DNA of 9,836 nucleotides, from the IMG/VR virus record IMGVR_UViG_2541047798_000001, one strand, 5' to 3'. Below, one piece after another: positions 1-7,063 of the stretch (the first letter of the stretch is position 1; each line of letters starts with the position of its first letter). The position numbers and the translations under genes were made by a program. The notes under the pieces are model-generated. The model worked only from the letters and a program-made list of their open reading frames with translations. It made no database searches and was not told the DNA's origin. The stretch comes from a virus (Duplodnaviria > Heunggongvirae > Uroviricota > Caudoviricetes).

Positions 1-1239
1 ATGAGCAGGGCAATTCATAGACTTAGCGACACTCTTTTACGAAAATTAAGCGGATCACCAACCACAAAAAACACCTTTTTTAATGATGGTGGCAACCTTA
101 GCGTAAGGCATTCAACCAATGGCCTGTTAACCTGGTATTTCACTTACAGGGCCGGAACAGGCAGGAAGGTAGCCCCTGAACGTCTGAGGCTGGGAAATTA
201 TCCAGATTTGAGCCTGAAAGCAGCCAGGGAAAAAGCGTCGCAGTGTCGCGCCTGGCTTGCTGAGGGTAAAAATCCACGCCATGAGCTTAATCACACCGTA
301 CAGGAAGCGTTATCACCTGTTACGGTTAAGGAAGCGCTCACTTACTGGCTTGAATCGTACGCGAAGGAAAAGCGCACAGATTACGAATCTCTGAAAAGCC
401 GGATCAATACACACATAATCAGCCATATTGGTGCTATGCCGCTGGAAAAATGCGAGCTACGCCACTGGCTGACCTGTTTTGATCAGCTTGCTAAGCGTAA
501 TCCGGTATCAGCAGGATTTTTGTTACAGGTATGCAAGCAGGCGCTTAAGTACTGCCGCAAACGACGCTACGCAATTACCAACGTTCTAGATGATATGGTT
601 GTAGGTGATGTTGGGAAAAAAGCAGAAATAAGCGAGCGCATACTAACAAACAAGGAGCTTGGGGAATTACTCCGCGCCCTGGATGAAAAAATTTACCCAC
701 CGTACTACAGCGCCCTGATTCGCCTCCTGATTGTCTTCGGATGTCGTACCACTGAGCTAAGACGCTCTGAGGTCCAGGAATGGGATTTTAAAGAAATGCT
801 CTGGACCGTGCCGAAAGAACATAGCAAAACGAAGGTAGCAATATTCAGGCCAATACCGGAAGCGATCTTGCCGTTCGTAACGAAGCTGGTGGAGCAGAAC
901 AGGCACACGGGATTATTGCTCGGAGAACTGAAAGGGCAATCATCCGTATCAGAGTACGGAAGAACGGCACACAGACGTATTAATCAAGCCCCCTGGACGT
1001 TGCACGACATCCGGCACACGTTTACAACGATGCTGAACGATTTAGGCGTGGATCCTCATGTAGTGGAGCAGCTAACCGCGCACCAGTTGCCAGGAATGCA
1101 ACGAGTCTATAATCACTCCCGTTATCTTGATGCAAAACGTGACGCTCTTAATCTATGGGTTGAGCGTCTCGAGCTTCTCCAGAACAATGATGAAAAAATC
1201 GTTGTTATGACCCCGCGAATTTACTCCCAAAATTCTTGA
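1..1239 (+). CDS. int: Tyrosine recombinase / integrase, P4 (CP4-57) type
   Basis: 412-aa ORF. N-terminal arm-binding (DUF4102-like) region (GLLTWYFTYRAGTGRKVAPERLRLGNYPDLSLKAAREKA); C-terminal catalytic domain with HxxR box (LHDIRHTFTT) and catalytic Tyr context (VYNHSRY). Confidence 0.9.
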   Translation: MSRAIHRLSDTLLRKLSGSPTTKNTFFNDGGNLSVRHSTNGLLTWYFTYRAGTGRKVAPERLRLGNYPDLSLKAAREKASQCRAWLAEGKNPRHELNHTVQEALSPVTVKEALTYWLESYAKEKRTDYESLKSRINTHIISHIGAMPLEKCELRHWLTCFDQLAKRNPVSAGFLLQVCKQALKYCRKRRYAITNVLDDMVVGDVGKKAEISERILTNKELGELLRALDEKIYPPYYSALIRLLIVFGCRTTELRRSEVQEWDFKEMLWTVPKEHSKTKVAIFRPIPEAILPFVTKLVEQNRHTGLLLGELKGQSSVSEYGRTAHRRINQAPWTLHDIRHTFTTMLNDLGVDPHVVEQLTAHQLPGMQRVYNHSRYLDAKRDALNLWVERLELLQNNDEKIVVMTPRIYSQNS

Positions 1240-1247
1240 CAAATTAC

Positions 1248-1273
1248 GGCTATTTTTCTTGCGAAAAATAGCC
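1248..1273. repeat. Perfect 11-bp inverted repeat GGCTATTTTTC-ttgc-GAAAAATAGCC just 3' of the int stop; AU-rich hairpin, possible terminator or protein-binding site
   Basis: Read directly from sequence. No strong U-tract follows, so an intrinsic terminator role is uncertain. Confidence 0.4.
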
Positions 1274-1282
1274 CTCTAAAAT

Positions 1283-1315
1283 AAATCGTCGAATATCGGC
1301 AAATATCGACGATTT
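1283..1315. promoter_or_regulatory. Inverted repeat AAATCGTCGA-N13-TCGACGATTT in the AT-rich int-alpA intergenic region; candidate operator
   Basis: Perfect 10-bp arms read from sequence; lies in the ~410-bp AT-rich region upstream of alpA. Confidence 0.35.
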
Positions 1316-1648
1316 ATATGTGTCAAGTATTGAAAAAATTTGAAATGTCTTCTTCTGAGTTCTTATTCTCTGTTTCTTGATTGTTCCAACACCTGATGGT
1401 TTATCTATTTGTTTTTAATGAGATAATTTAAGTGTAATACCAAATGACGACATTTTTTTGTTGCGTCGCTTAAAAACTCGTGACACGATTTTATGAACAG
1501 CAGCAAACTCTAGCGAACTTTGACGAACATAAAGTTCAGAAAGGTTACGTATTCAATTTAAGAGGTAAGAAAAGCTAAGAAGTAATATCTTTCCGTATAT
1601 CCACAGCGAAACAAAAATTTCTATACGTAATTTTATGTAGGACTTTTT

Positions 1649-1858
1649 ATGCGCGAAATAAATGAAGATCGTGTAATCCGCGAAAAAGAATGCAGAGAGC
1701 TAACAGGCGTTTGCCGCACAACTCGTTACGAGATGGAAAAGCAGGGCCGCTTCCCCTCACGTATCAGTCTCGGCGGTCGTTCTGTTGGCTGGGTTAAGTC
1801 TGAGGTTATGGAATGGGTTAAAAGCAGAAATCGTATTAATTCAGGTAAGGCAGCGTAG
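1649..1858 (+). CDS. alpA: AlpA-family phage regulatory protein (excisionase-like HTH)
   Basis: 69 aa; SD AGGA about 6 nt upstream of the ATG; signature GGRSVGWVKSEVMEWV and preceding TGVCRTTRYEMEKQGRFP match the Phage_AlpA/Vis family; positioned directly after int as in P4-like and PICI elements. Confidence 0.85.
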   Translation: MREINEDRVIREKECRELTGVCRTTRYEMEKQGRFPSRISLGGRSVGWVKSEVMEWVKSRNRINSGKAA

Positions 1859-1884
1859 GGGGAACATATGACACATAAAACAAA

Positions 1885-1904
1885 GGCGACCTGTGGCGGT
1901 CGCC
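1885..1904 (-). terminator. GC-rich hairpin GGCGACC-tgtggc-GGTCGCC between convergent alpA and the minus-strand regulator; T-rich tract follows on the minus strand
   Basis: 7-bp perfect stem; on the minus strand it is followed by TTTGTTTTATGTGT; about 90 bp downstream of the minus-strand gene stop. Confidence 0.4.
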
Positions 1905-1992
1905 AATGGGAAAACACTAAACATAAGCCAGAACATCATAGCGATTTGCTGTCTGGTGGGCAATGTGCTCAGTGTGCTGGCTTGCTGGTGGG

Positions 1993-2172
1993 CTATTCCT
2001 GCTCTTTGGCCTTGCGGCGCTGGCGGCGTTTGATTTCGCCGCGCATGGCTGCGTTTATAAACTGTCCCGTGCTTTCGCCTTCTTCTTTCACGTTCTCCAT
2101 GCCTTCAATAATTTCATGGGCAATACGTGCAGTTACAGATTGTGATTTTGCATTCTTTGGACCCGTTGCCAT
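1993..2172 (-). CDS. Small DNA-binding protein, probable ribbon-helix-helix (Arc/CopG-like) repressor
   Basis: 59 aa from the internal ATG of ORF 1993..2211 (MATGPKNAKSQSVTARIAHEIIEGMENVKEEGESTGQFINAAMRGEIKRRQRRKAKEQE). SD GAGGGG lies 6 nt upstream of that ATG. N-terminal beta-strand-like KSQSVTARI followed by two predicted helices. Operator-like repeats lie in its promoter. Confidence 0.45.
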   Translation of the reverse strand: MATGPKNAKSQSVTARIAHEIIEGMENVKEEGESTGQFINAAMRGEIKRRQRRKAKEQE

Positions 2173-2192
2173 GTTTAACCCCTCATGTTTTT

Positions 2193-2275
2193 GGTGTAAG
2201 ACAATATACACGAAAAAAAAATATTTTGAAGGGTTGACGTGTAAGACACCATTATTTTACATTGTGTCTTACACC
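2193..2275. promoter_or_regulatory. Divergent promoter/operator region: three copies of GTGTAAGACA(C) at 2194-2203, 2239-2249 and inverted at 2264-2274
   Basis: Repeats read from sequence. Copies 2 and 3 form an inverted pair separated by 14 AT-rich bp and overlap a candidate TTGACG(2234)-N18-TACATT + strand promoter; copy 1 sits just downstream of a candidate minus-strand -10 (TATATT). Confidence 0.5.
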
Positions 2276-2371
2276 TTATTGATGAAAGGCACAGAAACGA
2301 CGAAACCCCGCACTGTAGGAGCAGTAACGGGGCTTCTAACCACCAACGATAGCAACAGTATCGAGGTAGCT

Positions 2372-2575
2372 ATGAGAAATCATACCACACACCCGAAAGG
2401 GCGGGACTCGCACAACCTGAATAAATACATCTGGCGTTTTATCGCCCTGAGCACGGCACAACCGCGCGTGATTACCATTGAGGCCACCAGCGAACAGGAA
2501 GCACGCCAGCAATCCCCGGCTGGCTGCGTGATGGTATTCGCCGCCCGTATTCGTCAGGGGGTGTGCCATGCCTGA
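2372..2575 (+). CDS. Small protein, possibly Icd-like (host cell division inhibitor family); first gene of the replication operon
   Basis: 67 aa (MRNHTTHPKGRDSHNLNKYIWRFIALSTAQPRVITIEATSEQEARQQSPAGCVMVFAARIRQGVCHA); SD GAGGT 4 nt before the ATG; the pattern IEATSEQEARQQ...VMVFAARIRQG resembles Icd-like proteins of P4-type elements as recalled. The rest of the 235-aa ORF 1868..2575 is treated as spurious. Confidence 0.4.
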   Translation: MRNHTTHPKGRDSHNLNKYIWRFIALSTAQPRVITIEATSEQEARQQSPAGCVMVFAARIRQGVCHA

Positions 2576-2888
2576 CATGACCAATTACCAGTACCTGATT
2601 AATCCGCATTTTAACTGTGAGCATGATATTGCTAAAAAAGTTTATTCCGCTGCGGATGGGGCTACTGACAATATATCAATGGGTATTGCGTCAATTGGTA
2701 GCCTGATGTGGTATGCGTCAGAAAATAAGGAATATGACGAAAAGTCCATGCGCATTGATATGGGTAATATCGGTTTGTTACTGGCAATGCTTGGGCAGTT
2801 TGATATTTCGTTACGGTGCACCATTGAAAATGCCAAAGATGCATTAAATGCTATAAAGAAAGCGAATACTGATTTAAATCGGGGATAA
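2568..2888 (+). CDS. Hypothetical protein (106 aa)
   Basis: ORF overlaps the previous stop by 8 nt (translational coupling); SD GGGGGTG upstream; no recognisable motif. Confidence 0.5.
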   Translation: MPDMTNYQYLINPHFNCEHDIAKKVYSAADGATDNISMGIASIGSLMWYASENKEYDEKSMRIDMGNIGLLLAMLGQFDISLRCTIENAKDALNAIKKANTDLNRG

Positions 2889-2894
2889 ATAATC

Positions 2895-3194
2895 ATGAGA
2901 ACATATTTATCTGGCTTGACTGCCAGCGGTTATGCACACCCCCAAATTATCCCCGGCGCTATTTATCTGGATAAGAACGGTAACAGAGTAACGGTAAAAG
3001 AACTGATGTTTGACCGAGTGTATTTTATCCGTGATGGCTATTCATTTCTTAGTTCGCTGAACGTGGAGATCTTTATTAGCAGATTCAGGCGGGAAATCCC
3101 GCTTTCCAGAAATAACCATGTGTCATGTATGGATGTTGATAAAAAACTACAGGAACTAAAAAACATGATTGCCGCGTGGAGAGAGCAGAAATGA
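2895..3194 (+). CDS. Hypothetical protein (99 aa), possibly DUF4222-like
   Basis: Segment PGAIYLDKNGNRVTVKELMFDRVYFIRDGYS resembles prophage DUF4222 proteins as recalled; stop overlaps the primase ATG (ATGA). Confidence 0.45.
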   Translation: MRTYLSGLTASGYAHPQIIPGAIYLDKNGNRVTVKELMFDRVYFIRDGYSFLSSLNVEIFISRFRREIPLSRNNHVSCMDVDKKLQELKNMIAAWREQK

Positions 3195-5314
3195 AAAAAG
3201 CGCCAAATTTAAAACACCAGCCACGTGACAAAATGACGGAAGTCATCATTTTTGCGGGTAGTGATGCGTGGGCACATGCGAAGCAGTGGCAGGAACAGGA
3301 CGGGCGACTGGCTGGCGACAGCGTGCCTCCTGTCTGGCTTGGAGAGCAACAACTTGCCGAACTGGATAAGCTGCAAATTGTGCCGGAAGGCCGAAAATCA
3401 GTACGCATATTCAGGGCCGGACATCTTGAGCCAGTAATGATCAAGGCGATTGGTCAGAAGCTGGCGGCGGCAGGCGTACAGGATGCAAATTTTTACCCTG
3501 ATGGAATGCACGGTCAGGAGGTGGAGAACTGGCGCGAATATCTAGCCCGTGAGCGGCAGAATCTTTCTGATGGTCTGGTTATTGAGTTTCCGGTAAAGAA
3601 AAAAGATACCGGAAGCCATAGCGATGACGAATTAAAGCCACGCGTTGAAAGTCGCGCCGATGGTGTTTTCTGGGTAACGCCCAAAGTGGATAAGCAGTCA
3701 GGCGAAATTATCCGGCCTGAGACGTGGTTATGTTCTCCGCTTGAACTACTGGGAACGGGGACGATCGGTAAAGAGCATTACCGCGTGATGCGCTGGAAAA
3801 AAACCGCAAACCATGAAGTCATCACAATGGCGATCCCGTGTGGTGGTATCGGCGACCGTGACGGCTGGCGGTTACTTAAAGATCACGGGCTGAACGTGAC
3901 AACCAACGGCAAATACAGGGCAATCCTGGCGGACTGGATGCAGTTAAGCGGAAGCCATGAGGAATGGCAGTTAAGCACAACAACGGGCTGGCATTTTGGC
4001 GCGTACATCATGCCGGACGGTTCGATCATTGGTGAATCTGAAAAACCGATCCTGTTTACCGGAAAAAGCGCCGCGATTAACGGTTATTCCGTGGCGGGCA
4101 CGGCGGATGGCTGGCGCGACAGCGTGGCGCGGCTGGCTGGCGGTAATGCCTCAATGATGCTGGGTGTGGCAACGTCACTGGCAGCGCCTTTAATTGGCCT
4201 TGTGGGTGCTGACGGCTTCGGGGTGCATCTTTTCGAACAGTCATCGGCAGGTAAGACCACCACGCAGAACATCGCATCAAGTTTATGGGGAGAGCCGGAC
4301 GCGCAGCGGCTGACCTGGTACGGCACGGCGTTAGGTATTGCCAATGAGGCCGAGGCCCATAATGACGGGCTTTTACCACTGGATGAGATAGGCCAGGCCG
4401 GAAATGCGCGGGAAGTGTCAACGTCTGCTTATACGCTGTTTAACGGTTCAGGGAAATTGCAGGGGGCGAAGGATGGCGGCAACAGGGAGATCAAACACTG
4501 GCGAACGGTGGCAATCAGCACCGGAGAAATGGACGTTGAGACATTCCTCAAAAGTGAGGGGATAAAAGTTAAGGCGGGGCAGCTTGTCCGACTGCTTAAC
4601 GTTCCGATGGAAAAAGCCACGAAATTTCACGAATACAGCAACGGTAAGGAACATGCTGACGCGTTAAAGGATGCCTGGACAGCAAATCACGGGGCGGCGG
4701 GTCGTGAGTGGGTTAAATGGCTGGCAGGCCACCAGCAGGAGGCAAAGGATACGGTAAGGGAATGCCGCGAACGGTGGCGCAACCTGATACCGGAGAGCTA
4801 CGGCGAGCAGGTCCACCGCGTGGGTGAACGTTTCGCCATACTGGAGGCCGCGCTTGTGCTTTCCGGTCATGTAACTGGCTGGGTCGTGCAGGAATGCCGC
4901 GACGCGATACAGCATAACTTTAATGCCTGGGTGAAGGAGTTCGGCACGGGTAACAGGGAATTTAAACAGATGGTTGAACAGGCTGAGGCGTTTTTGTCGT
5001 CGTTTGGGTTTAGCCGCTACCTTCCGTACCCCAATACAGATGAGCGTGATTTACCGATTAAAGAGCTTGCCGGATACAGAAAAGGGAGCATTCGCAACGA
5101 AGATGACGAGATGCGCTATTACACGTTCCCGCACGTGTTTGAGAGTGAGATAGCGAAGGGATTTAATCCGGCGCATTTTGCGCGTGCCCTGGATGCTGCC
5201 GGAATGCTGGAGAAGGGAAGCGATCGCCGATACAAAAAAAAGGCGCTGGGCAAGATTGGGGGTAAGCAGCATGTTTTTTACGTGCTGATGTTCCAGCCTG
5301 ATGATGAAGATTAA
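3191..5314 (+). CDS. Replication initiation protein: primase/helicase-like P-loop NTPase (DUF927 / P4 alpha-like)
   Basis: 707 aa from the ATG at 3191 (SD GGAGAG; ATGA overlap with the upstream ORF). Deviant Walker A FEQSSAGKTTT and Walker B LLPLDEIG; N-terminal segment EVIIFAGSDAWAHA may be Toprim-like; followed immediately by an iteron array. Confidence 0.7.
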   Translation: MKKAPNLKHQPRDKMTEVIIFAGSDAWAHAKQWQEQDGRLAGDSVPPVWLGEQQLAELDKLQIVPEGRKSVRIFRAGHLEPVMIKAIGQKLAAAGVQDANFYPDGMHGQEVENWREYLARERQNLSDGLVIEFPVKKKDTGSHSDDELKPRVESRADGVFWVTPKVDKQSGEIIRPETWLCSPLELLGTGTIGKEHYRVMRWKKTANHEVITMAIPCGGIGDRDGWRLLKDHGLNVTTNGKYRAILADWMQLSGSHEEWQLSTTTGWHFGAYIMPDGSIIGESEKPILFTGKSAAINGYSVAGTADGWRDSVARLAGGNASMMLGVATSLAAPLIGLVGADGFGVHLFEQSSAGKTTTQNIASSLWGEPDAQRLTWYGTALGIANEAEAHNDGLLPLDEIGQAGNAREVSTSAYTLFNGSGKLQGAKDGGNREIKHWRTVAISTGEMDVETFLKSEGIKVKAGQLVRLLNVPMEKATKFHEYSNGKEHADALKDAWTANHGAAGREWVKWLAGHQQEAKDTVRECRERWRNLIPESYGEQVHRVGERFAILEAALVLSGHVTGWVVQECRDAIQHNFNAWVKEFGTGNREFKQMVEQAEAFLSSFGFSRYLPYPNTDERDLPIKELAGYRKGSIRNEDDEMRYYTFPHVFESEIAKGFNPAHFARALDAAGMLEKGSDRRYKKKALGKIGGKQHVFYVLMFQPDDED

Positions 5315-5336
5315 TCCCCTGTGTGAGGAAAAAAAT

Positions 5337-5652
5337 TGCGGGTTATGCGGGTTATCCTGTGTATAAGTGTATTAAGTGCATGAATATAAAGGAAACCAAT
5401 AACCCGCACGTAACCCGCAAAAGGGCATTTATAACCCGCAAAAGCACGATTATAACCCGCAGGCGAATAACTGAAGTAACACCGGACAGTCATGCGTAAC
5501 CCGCAGAAAAAACCCCGTTTGCGGGTTATTTTGAGCGTTTTGCGGGTTACGTGGTGAGCAAATAATAAACAGGGCGTTTTGCAAAATACTGATATAAAAG
5601 GATAAAAAATGGTTAGCACGCTAAGATAACCCAATAACCCGCATAACCCGCA
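5337..5652. repeat. Iteron-type origin of replication: at least 11 copies of (A)TAACCCGCA / TGCGGGTTA plus an AT-rich (TA)5 tract
   Basis: Copies at 5337-5345, 5346-5354, 5520-5528, 5541-5549 (TGCGGGTTA orientation) and 5399-5408, 5411-5419, 5431-5440, 5452-5461, 5497-5505, 5634-5643, 5644-5652 (TAACCCGCA orientation); degenerate copy at 5626-5633; (TA)5 at 5661-5670. Sits directly 3' of the replication gene. Confidence 0.7.
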
Positions 5653-5684
5653 CATGTTTCTATATATATAAATTGAGGTGGCAA

Positions 5685-5936
5685 ATGACCAGAACACGCA
5701 GAGACAGAACAGAGCCAAAATATAAAGCGTTAGACATGACTGAGCACACCTTAAAGGTGGCAATCAGAACGATAGACCGCCACACGCGGGAAGGATACGC
5801 GAAGGAACATCCCGACCTGATAAGCGCATTCATGACCACGGCGGCGGAAAACTTTGCCACGCTGACAGAACGGGAGATTGCCGAAGCGGAACAGGTAACA
5901 ACCATCAACGTTAAAACCGGAGAGGTGGAATCATGA
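5685..5936 (+). CDS. Hypothetical protein (83 aa)
   Basis: ATG at 5685 with SD GAGGTGG (5675-5681); the TTG start at 5673 from the ORF track is less likely. Stop overlaps the ssb ATG (ATGA). Confidence 0.5.
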   Translation: MTRTRRDRTEPKYKALDMTEHTLKVAIRTIDRHTREGYAKEHPDLISAFMTTAAENFATLTEREIAEAEQVTTINVKTGEVES

Positions 5937-6343
5937 CAGCACAGATAGCGGCTTACGGTCGGCTGGTGGACGACCCGCAGGTAAAACAGACCAGCAAGGG
6001 CACACCGATGACGCTGGCGCGTATGGCGGTATCACTGCCATGCAGTCAGGCACAGGACGGACAGGCGACGTTATGGCTATCGGTCATCGCATTTGGTAAG
6101 CAGGCCGACTTCCTGGCTAAACATCAAAAAGGCGACGTTGCCAGCGTATCCGGCACGATGCAGGTAAGCCAGTGGACCGGACAGAACGGGGAGACGCGTC
6201 AGGGTTATCAGGTTATTGCAGACAGCGTAATCAGTGCCCGTGCGGCACGTCCTGGCGGGAACAGACGCAAAACCACAGGCGCACAGGGTAATCAGCCACC
6301 AGCGGGAGGCGATGACCCTTACGGTGATGATATTCCGTTCTGA
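5933..6343 (+). CDS. ssb: Single-stranded DNA-binding protein (SSB-like)
   Basis: 136 aa. OB-fold-like N-terminal region aligns by eye with E. coli SSB (AAYGRLVDDPQV ~ LVGNLGQDPEV; LWLSVIAFGKQADFLAKHQKGDVASVSGTMQVSQWTGQNGETRQGYQVIADSV ~ [50 protein letters not shown]); Gly/Pro/Gln-rich linker; C-terminal acidic tip GDDIPF identical to the SSB partner-binding motif. Confidence 0.8.
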   Translation: MTAQIAAYGRLVDDPQVKQTSKGTPMTLARMAVSLPCSQAQDGQATLWLSVIAFGKQADFLAKHQKGDVASVSGTMQVSQWTGQNGETRQGYQVIADSVISARAARPGGNRRKTTGAQGNQPPAGGDDPYGDDIPF

Positions 6344-6353
6344 GGGGGTGACG

Positions 6354-6602
6354 ATGGTACATGACCGCATAGCGGAAGAACTCGAAGCGAAAGGATTTTA
6401 CCGGAGGGCGGCGGCGCGATGGGGTGAAGTCATGATGCTGGTGGAGACAGACAAGGAACGGCATCACATCACGATGCGACGGCTGGAATGTTCCAGGAAG
6501 GCACAGAGGCCACCGGAGCCGCCAACGGAGAACTATGCAGACCTGAGAAATGCAGTAAATCGCACTTACGCAGACATGGGGCTGAGCAAATTAGCAGAGT
6601 AG
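6354..6602 (+). CDS. PerC-family transcriptional regulator-like protein
   Basis: 82 aa from the internal ATG at 6354 (SD GAGGGGG; begins 10 nt after the ssb stop). Motif AEELEAKGFYRRAAARWGEVM matches the PerC/Pch signature as recalled. The upstream part of ORF 6234..6602 overlaps ssb and is rejected. Confidence 0.5.
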   Translation: MVHDRIAEELEAKGFYRRAAARWGEVMMLVETDKERHHITMRRLECSRKAQRPPEPPTENYADLRNAVNRTYADMGLSKLAE

Positions 6603-6624
6603 GAATACCAGAACCACACCACAC

Positions 6625-6647
6625 AGCCGGAGCAATCCGGCTTTTTT
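6625..6647 (+). terminator. Rho-independent terminator after the replication operon
   Basis: Stem AGCCGGA / TCCGGCT with GCAA loop followed by T6. Confidence 0.7.
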
Positions 6648-6658
6648 GCGCCCAAAAA

Positions 6659-6693
6659 AAGCCCGATAAGGTCAGAGGTGGCTTATCGGGCTT
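6659..6693. terminator. Second hairpin, possibly a bidirectional terminator
   Basis: Perfect 12-bp stem AAGCCCGATAAG / CTTATCGGGCTT with 11-nt loop; A7 upstream and T4 downstream. Confidence 0.5.
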
Positions 6694-6772
6694 TTGCATA
6701 TGAGGTTTTTTGGTGCACTGACACACATGATCGGGATAATAATTTCATAATTTGCAACGCAACTCAATATCA

Positions 6773-6825
6773 TTGCACAAAATGCAATCATGATTATAAT
6801 CATAACTGGATGAACATCCAGTTAT
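6773..6825 (+). promoter_or_regulatory. Capsid-operon promoter: TTGCAC(6773-6778)-N16-TATAAT(6795-6800) embedded in three palindromes
   Basis: Perfect -10 and 4/6 -35. Palindromes: ATTGCA-caaaa-TGCAAT (6772-6788), ATGATTATAATCAT (6790-6803), ATAACTGGATG-AA-CATCCAGTTAT (6802-6825, at the predicted start region). Confidence 0.5.
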
Positions 6826-6856
6826 GATTTTTTAAGTCAAAGAGGAATTTCTTACT

Positions 6857-7063
6857 ATGGCTGAAGAGAAAAAAGGCGGTGTTTCGGTGTACATAAGCCC
6901 CGACATCGTGAAGGCGCTCAAGGAACGCCACCAGCAGAACGTAAAAGCAGGCATTGCGGCAGGACTTGATCCGCTGGCGATGGTTGAGCCGTCAACAGGC
7001 TGGCAGGTACGCGCCTATTTACGCGCGGCGCTGGGTATGAATCAGGTTCACGGGGGTGAATAA
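6857..7063 (+). CDS. Hypothetical small protein (68 aa), first gene of the capsid operon
   Basis: SD AGAGGA upstream; stop overlaps the capsid ATG (TAATG). N-terminus (GGVSVYISPDIVKALKERHQQ) is compatible with a ribbon-helix-helix fold, but this is uncertain. Confidence 0.5.
   Translation: MAEEKKGGVSVYISPDIVKALKERHQQNVKAGIAAGLDPLAMVEPSTGWQVRAYLRAALGMNQVHGGE

Follow-up and report, generated by a model that had tools for sequence, protein, structure and literature searches.

A PchE-type perC gene closing the post-origin cluster of an EcCICFT073-like phage-inducible chromosomal island

Results

The stretch of viral DNA that was analysed here (9,836 nucleotides, IMG/VR record IMGVR_UViG_2541047798_000001; hereafter, the window) can be identified by its gene content as a mosaic phage-inducible chromosomal island (PICI) of the EcCICFT073 type, and the gene of interest in it is perC, which is the final gene of a compact p87-ssb-perC cluster (5685-6602) that follows the presumed replication origin and precedes a capsid module (Table 1). 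The features by which a PICI is recognised were all found, namely an integrase gene, alpA, a DUF927 primase gene, iterons and a capsid/decoration module, together with a size of about 10 kb and a chromosomal site of its own; lysis and tail genes are lacking. An rpp or terS gene was absent from its usual slot. Because RefSeq names the gene in E. coli SCU-172 as a "PerC family transcriptional regulator" and PerC variants have been described in the literature for some E. coli PICIs (PMC6092414), the perC of the window is a known gene of a known element that was already annotated correctly.

The open reading frame (ORF) of perC has 82 codons and extends on the + strand from an ATG at 6354 to a TAG at 6600-6602. 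Reading the sequence directly revealed a Shine-Dalgarno-like GAGGGGG motif at 6342-6348, 5 nt before the ATG, and a gap of 10 nt between the ssb stop, which ends at 6343, and the perC start. A longer ORF in the same frame begins with a GTG at 6234 and runs into ssb; the RefSeq version of the gene has 249 nt. The product matched the Pfam profile PF06069 (PerC) with an E value of 1e-35 and 122.3 bits against a gathering cutoff of 22.6, residues 1-78 being aligned with positions 1-77 of the 90 in the profile, and it also matched phrog_994 (E 1.8e-39). Moreover, the core residues A7, G14, Y16, R17, R18, A19, R22, W23, R42, R43 and C46, which were invariant or nearly so in alignments of 42 sequences that included homologues from other genera, were all present. 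With a match so far above chance, the 82-aa product is to be regarded as a genuine PerC family member. This agrees with the initial annotation, which had also correctly described the gene as the last one of the replication cluster behind the origin, upstream of terminators. The product was identical at 79 of 82 positions to the PerC-like protein of EcCICFT073 (WP_000233305.1), at 65 to PchE, at 37 to a PchABC-type protein and at 35 to the PerC of enteropathogenic E. coli (EPEC), and based on these identities, it can be assigned to the group 3 Pch (PchE-type) alleles.

Two intrinsic terminators follow the gene, and their hairpins jointly have a minimum free energy of -36.2 kcal/mol (z -4.2). 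The first, formed by AGCCGGAGCAATCCGGCT and a T-run, was conserved after perC in Sakai Sp7 and in two other islands (L018 and L019), and it was found directly after ssb in an island without perC (L020).

The AlphaFold2 model of the protein (predicted local distance difference test score of 85) consists of four helices that form a bundle resembling tetratricopeptide repeats, in which the first 50 residues make up a three-helix core that is followed by a proline-rich linker and the fourth helix. A DNA-binding fold or motif was absent from the predicted model, and a sequence search of the PDB with PerC found no relative, the best hits being unrelated F-BAR proteins (E 0.18). The ANR (AraC negative regulator) profile NF033650 of NCBIfam aligned with residues 7-52 at 20.5 bits (E 3e-4), which is below its cutoff of 32, and sub-threshold ANR matches were also obtained for 23 of 42 PerC relatives (best E 2e-7). 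The ANR proteins, such as Aar and Rnr, bind AraC-type regulators and H-NS; they are three-helix proteins of less than 10 kDa with the signature A10, E14, A22, W26, R47 and C51 (PMC4983702). Compared by eye, A7, E11, A19, W23, R42 and C46 of the window PerC appear to reproduce this spacing with a loop that is two residues shorter, and an all-helical, three-helix core seems to be shared as well, although the model has four helices, the linker and the fourth helix being additional in PerC. The sub-threshold matches point to a remote homology rather than to membership of the ANR family, and a core with the apparent ANR signature suggests a mechanism that is based on protein contacts. None of the window proteins that were scanned against Pfam and PHROGs had an AraC-type domain.

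The window PerC ends with ...MGLSKLAE and does not have the conserved C-terminal tail, G...[FW]R[NK]Y, that is kept in PchE, EPEC PerC, the PchABC-type protein and most of the relatives, which are usually 89-104 aa long. The loss of this tail could mean that the 82-aa allele is a decaying remnant in which a rearrangement or a nonsense change at the module junction removed the C-terminus. Such a history would agree with the Pfam match, which stops short of the profile end, with the similarity to Sp7, which breaks at 6580 within the 3' end of perC, and with the bases GAATACCAGAAC after the stop codon, which look like the RNYPD codons of the long alleles. Additionally, the nearly identical CFT073 allele was reported to be inactive on LEE1 in the enterocyte effacement locus (LEE), as stated in PMC11773190, which cites Porter 2005. 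However, full-length PchE was also reported to be inactive there, which makes the LEE1 assay uninformative about the tail, and ANR proteins function with the core alone (PMC4983702). The short-allele 3' end was found intact in 48 of 5,426 complete E. coli genomes of diverse origin, CFT073 among them. The ratio of nonsynonymous to synonymous substitution rates (dN/dS) over the first 56 codons ranged from 0.06 to 0.40 and was 0.19 between the two short alleles, figures that are based on few substitutions. Decay is therefore quite unlikely in our judgement; the short perC appears to be maintained under purifying selection, and the CFT073-type allele is best described as a naturally tail-less PerC.

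The initial annotation had further placed a capsid-operon promoter beyond the terminators and suggested that PerC could activate the capsid operon. The stretch between the terminators and the capsid genes has a GC content of 32% and contains a weak sigma-70-like match at 6744-6773 (9 of 12 consensus positions), but the promoter-like matches in the scanned region were no more numerous than in shuffled sequences (2 versus 2.3 expected), and the promoter is thus a putative one. Two palindromes resembling ATTGCA-N5-TGCAAT, at 6742-6758 (2 mismatches) and 6772-6788 (perfect), were considered as operators and rejected, as the three occurrences with at most two mismatches were matched by 11 of 200 shuffles. 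The longer palindrome before p68 was likewise discarded as an operator: its arms are perfect in this island type only, and in relatives the left arm has changes that are not compensated. As RNA, it would fold into a terminator-like hairpin (-19.8 kcal/mol, z -6.0), and in the unrelated head module of Sp7, a similar hairpin with a T8 run is found ahead of the gene for the major head protein (L002 9649-9686). The presence of a hairpin before the first gene of both modules suggests that PICI morphogenesis operons are under leader termination/antitermination control, and the hairpin is a better lead on the control of the capsid operon than PerC. A BLASTN search in distant mode with the control region and p68 against 50,697 phage records found no match and therefore gave no evidence of a late promoter or qut region copied from a helper phage.

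Under the activation hypothesis, PerC would be made together with the replication genes after AlpA-driven induction and would de-silence or activate the region 6700-6856, so that the capsid genes are expressed after replication. Several observations fit this idea. The capsid module follows directly on the gene, the terminators lying between them, the low GC content of the control region is typical of H-NS-bound DNA, PchA is a de-silencer that counteracts H-NS (PMC4764244), and the order of perC followed by morphogenesis genes recurs in Sp7, where pchE occupies the same place before an unrelated module with an HK97-type head, protease, portal and terminase. The hairpins before both modules also indicate that a dedicated control step probably exists. 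However, a junction in which ssb is joined to the terminator without perC was found in 161 of 5,426 complete E. coli genomes, that of Nissle 1917 among them (counted when at least 80% of the 271-bp query was covered), while perC together with this control region was found in 410. Two perC-less islands were examined, those of ZLWT and Nissle 1917. Both run straight from the ssb stop into the same terminator, and perC is cleanly absent upstream of the same capsid module and its control region; for ZLWT, a reading of the second terminator, the palindromes and the hairpin showed agreement with the window. The PICI that the probiotic strain Nissle 1917 carries at narP (L020 6788-7000; L025) has this type of capsid and seems to be complete, and its two terminators are separated by about 170 bp of unrelated sequence.

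A scan of one genome per species yielded 13 loci with full-length PerC homologues in Escherichia albertii, Atlantibacter, Enterobacter, Kluyvera, Shimwellia, Lonsdalea, Pantoea, Chimaeribacter, Erwinia and a metagenome-assembled genome of an unclassified member of the Enterobacteriaceae. The homologue is located 3' of a DUF927 primase and/or SSB gene in 12 of the 13, and the genes 3' of it are unrelated and non-capsid (unknowns, ORFs with lipoprotein-like signals, a SocA-like antitoxin and integrases), as is the case in the 12 loci outside Escherichia; a hairpin scan and an inspection by eye revealed no shared terminator or motif 3' of perC in the 13 loci. Furthermore, pchE is expressed at a basal level that falls on SOS induction (PMC6265319), which is a poor fit to a late switch, and neither the predicted fold, with its lack of a DNA-binding motif, nor the palindromes, which are not above chance, nor the hairpin arms with their uncompensated differences in relatives speak for such a switch. 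Based on the perC-less islands, Sp7, the loci in other genera and the expression of pchE taken together, PerC can be described as tied to the replication module and as optional in islands that have this capsid operon. A reservation applies here, in that a divergent PerC copy elsewhere in the perC-less genomes could act in trans. It is nevertheless unlikely that PerC is a dedicated sequence-specific activator of the adjacent capsid operon, and the broader scenario of a late switch, silencing relief included, is also an unlikely one in our estimation.

In the islands of Enterobacter, Lonsdalea, Chimaeribacter and Erwinia (L005 7360-, L011 7359-, L013 7359- and L014 7359-), a gene with a lipoprotein-type signal peptide, as read from the sequence, is located about 90 bp 3' of perC. 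Behind it come two genes of unknown function, one of about 108 aa and the other of 580-1136 aa; this pair may represent cargo of an accessory or defence kind.

Table 1. Features of the island within the window.
Feature	Position	Strand	Remarks
Integrase gene	1-1239		
alpA	1649-1858		
DUF4222 gene, 99 aa	2895-3194		Overlaps the start of the replication gene
DUF927 primase/helicase-type replication gene	3176-5314		
Presumed replication origin, at least 12 iterons TAACCCGCA in both orientations	5330-5660		Between the DUF927 gene and p87; repeat search
p87 (phrog_1231)	5685-5936	+	Leads the post-origin cluster; its stop and the ssb start overlap in ATGA; matches Sakai Sp7 ECs1586
ssb, single-stranded DNA-binding protein	5933-6343	+	Pfam SSB, E 4e-17; TIGR00621
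perC/pchE-type gene, 82 aa, short allele	6354-6602	+	PF06069, alignments, AlphaFold2 model
Intrinsic terminator 1	6625-6650	+	AGCCGGAGCAATCCGGCT and T-run
Intrinsic terminator 2	6657-6699		Perfect 14-nt arms, A-run before and T-run after; bidirectional shape
AT-rich putative capsid-operon control region	6742-6788	+	Sigma-70-like match and two palindromes
Palindrome	6798-6835	+	Perfect 15-nt arms, then T6; directly ahead of the ribosome-binding site of p68
Capsid module: p68, lambda gpE-type major capsid protein, head decoration protein, p137	6857-8892	+	Pfam Phage_cap_E; PHROGs

The closest complete genome was that of E. coli SCU-172 (98.5% identity), in which the element lies between cspD and clpS. 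Positions 5757-9001 of the window were 95% identical to EcCICFT073, and between positions 3150-6580 and Sakai Sp7 (OI-51), a capsid-forming PICI also named EcCIEDL933, the identity was 96%. When the window (1-9836) was compared with L002, L018, L019 and L022, the integrase and alpA resembled those of the cspD-clpS islands (94% to L018 and L019), the DUF927 replication module that of Sp7 (96%), and the ssb-perC-capsid part that of EcCICFT073 (95%). The breakpoints coincide with module borders, and one of them lies within the 3' end of perC. At the iterons, the GC content falls to 37-47%, and the array, which finishes in a TATATATATAAA tract, presumably represents the replication origin of the island. 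An Rfam scan of the whole window at E <= 0.1 gave no match.

Some further features of the island deserve mention. The DUF4222 gene has the same position and length (99 aa) as ECs1581 of Sakai Sp7, which is the regulator RgdR that was reported to control type III secretion (PMC3378721), and of the 13 PerC loci of the species scan, 8 contained DUF4222-like ORFs (BLASTP, window proteins as references). A weak match linked the p137 protein (8479-8892, phrog_1999) to positions 494-567 of the 583 in the profile phrog_53, a head maturation protease. These positions belong to the C-terminal part of the protease, whose coding sequence specifies the scaffold in lambda-like phages, and for this reason, p137 may be a Nu3-like scaffold that takes part in determining capsid size. 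Downstream of it, a segment of about 600 bp (8924-9521) lies between 72-nt inverted repeats (8924-8995 and 9450-9521; 83% complementary), and the island of E. coli STEC2018-607 contains a segment that is 98% identical but has the opposite orientation (L018 11806-12403). What relatives have in this slot is rppA (EcCICFT073) or a gene annotated as a terminase small subunit; in the window the slot has no such gene and carries a stretch of 26-28% GC at 9250-9474. The last gene of the window encodes 93 aa.

Discussion

The explanation that we favour, and that we hold to be reasonably probable, is that the PchE-type PerC is the product of an accessory PICI gene and a small trans-acting modulator of host promoters that works via protein or nucleoprotein contacts. 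In this model, perC would be co-transcribed with p87 and ssb just after the replication origin, in a unit that is closed by the two terminators, and PerC would act in trans by contacting proteins or nucleoprotein complexes, with H-NS/StpA-type silencing complexes or AraC-type activators as candidate partners. These contacts would shift the expression of host genes in the way that was reported for PchE, whose overexpression represses csgD and curli and raises the flagellar genes (PMC6265319, PMC7369912). The family membership, the gene order, the terminators, the frequency of perC among genomes and the purifying selection are results of the analysis, while the way in which PerC acts and its targets are inferred. 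The cross-talk with chromosomal genes that had been proposed for this gene is plausible in the light of the PchE precedent. A route via the LEE does not fit, because the 96% identical EcCICFT073 allele and PchE were reported to have no LEE1 effect in PMC11773190, which cites Porter 2005.

It was also considered whether the target of PerC is the helper phage, that is, whether PerC acts on helper late transcription or on the lysis-lysogeny decision to the benefit of the satellite, in the manner of P4 delta on the P2 late genes. The place of perC beside the replication genes of the satellite core, which is kept across genera, would suit such a role. With the window PerC as a single tblastn query (E <= 1e-3), the family was found in 2 of 50,697 phage records and in 207 plasmids, and it thus seems to belong to satellites, plasmids and islands; moreover, EcCIMP1 was reported to aid the replication of its helper (PMC11773190). 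On the other hand, when the post-origin genes of EcCICFT073 were expressed singly, only c1503 (RppA) affected lambda plaque formation (PMC6739421); the genes are not listed in that passage, but perC was probably among them. Together with the finding that perC is optional in otherwise complete islands, this leaves a role directed at the helper as a very unlikely explanation.

Returning to the favoured model of a modulator of host promoters, a more general scheme can be put forward as a speculation in which we place little confidence. PerC proteins would have arisen from ANR-type anti-activator cores by the gain of an effector tail at the C-terminus, and PICIs would carry tail-less variants; the tail would then decide between activation, as by PerC and PchABC, and the mere sequestering or antagonising of partner regulators. 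When perC is present, the satellite might also relieve H-NS silencing of its AT-rich late control region after induction. The PerC family is a small one, with 312 clusters at 50% identity among 1.84 billion representatives, and many of these clusters match the core only.

The useful outcome of this work is in part a negative one, as the expectation that a regulator beside a capsid operon must activate it is contradicted by many natural islands without perC. A tail-less PerC of the CFT073 type with an ANR-like core may, moreover, be of use for research on both PICIs and the Pch family.

Comparison with known PerC systems

The nearest known system is EcCICFT073, the prototype of the Gram-negative PICIs, which shares with the window the neighbours p87, ssb, perC, p68, capsid and decoration genes as well as the 3' end of perC and its terminator. 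Its PerC-like protein also has 82 aa and is separated from that of the window by three substitutions (M28Q, H38Q and I39V). The two islands differ in their remaining parts: EcCICFT073 occupies the roxA-phoQ site, encodes a "DNA primase family" replication protein and has rppA in the slot after p137, whereas the island of the window has another integrase, the cspD-clpS site and a DUF927-type replication protein, and is without rppA. PchE (ECs1588) of O157:H7 Sakai has the same position after ssb and the same terminator. However, it is 90 aa long and has the DGVSDEIWRNYPDS tail that is missing from the window PerC, and behind it come ECs1589 and a full head, portal and terminase module of the HK97 type instead of the gpE-type capsid and decoration genes.

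The relationship to the virulence regulators is more distant. The PerC of EPEC (pMAR2) and PchA/B/C share the core residues A7, G14, R17, R18, A19, R22, W23, R42 and C46 with the window PerC, but they carry an FRNY or FRRY tail, and in EPEC and enterohaemorrhagic E. coli their genes are located on the EAF plasmid beside perA and perB, or near lysis and effector genes. Activation of LEE1/ler, from which the family has its name, is a property of these proteins but reportedly not of the PICI alleles (PMC11773190, PMC6265319); on LEE1 fusions, no effect was reported for the versions of EcCICFT073 and EDL933 (PMC11773190, citing Porter 2005; PMC6265319). A PICI-borne member of the PerC family is likewise EcCIMP1_025, for which about 40% identity to the EcCICFT073 and EDL933 proteins was reported. 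Its island has no structural genes, in contrast to the window with its capsid module. EcCIMP1_025 represses LEE1 in C. rodentium, and its authors suggested an ANR-like role for it (PMC11773190).
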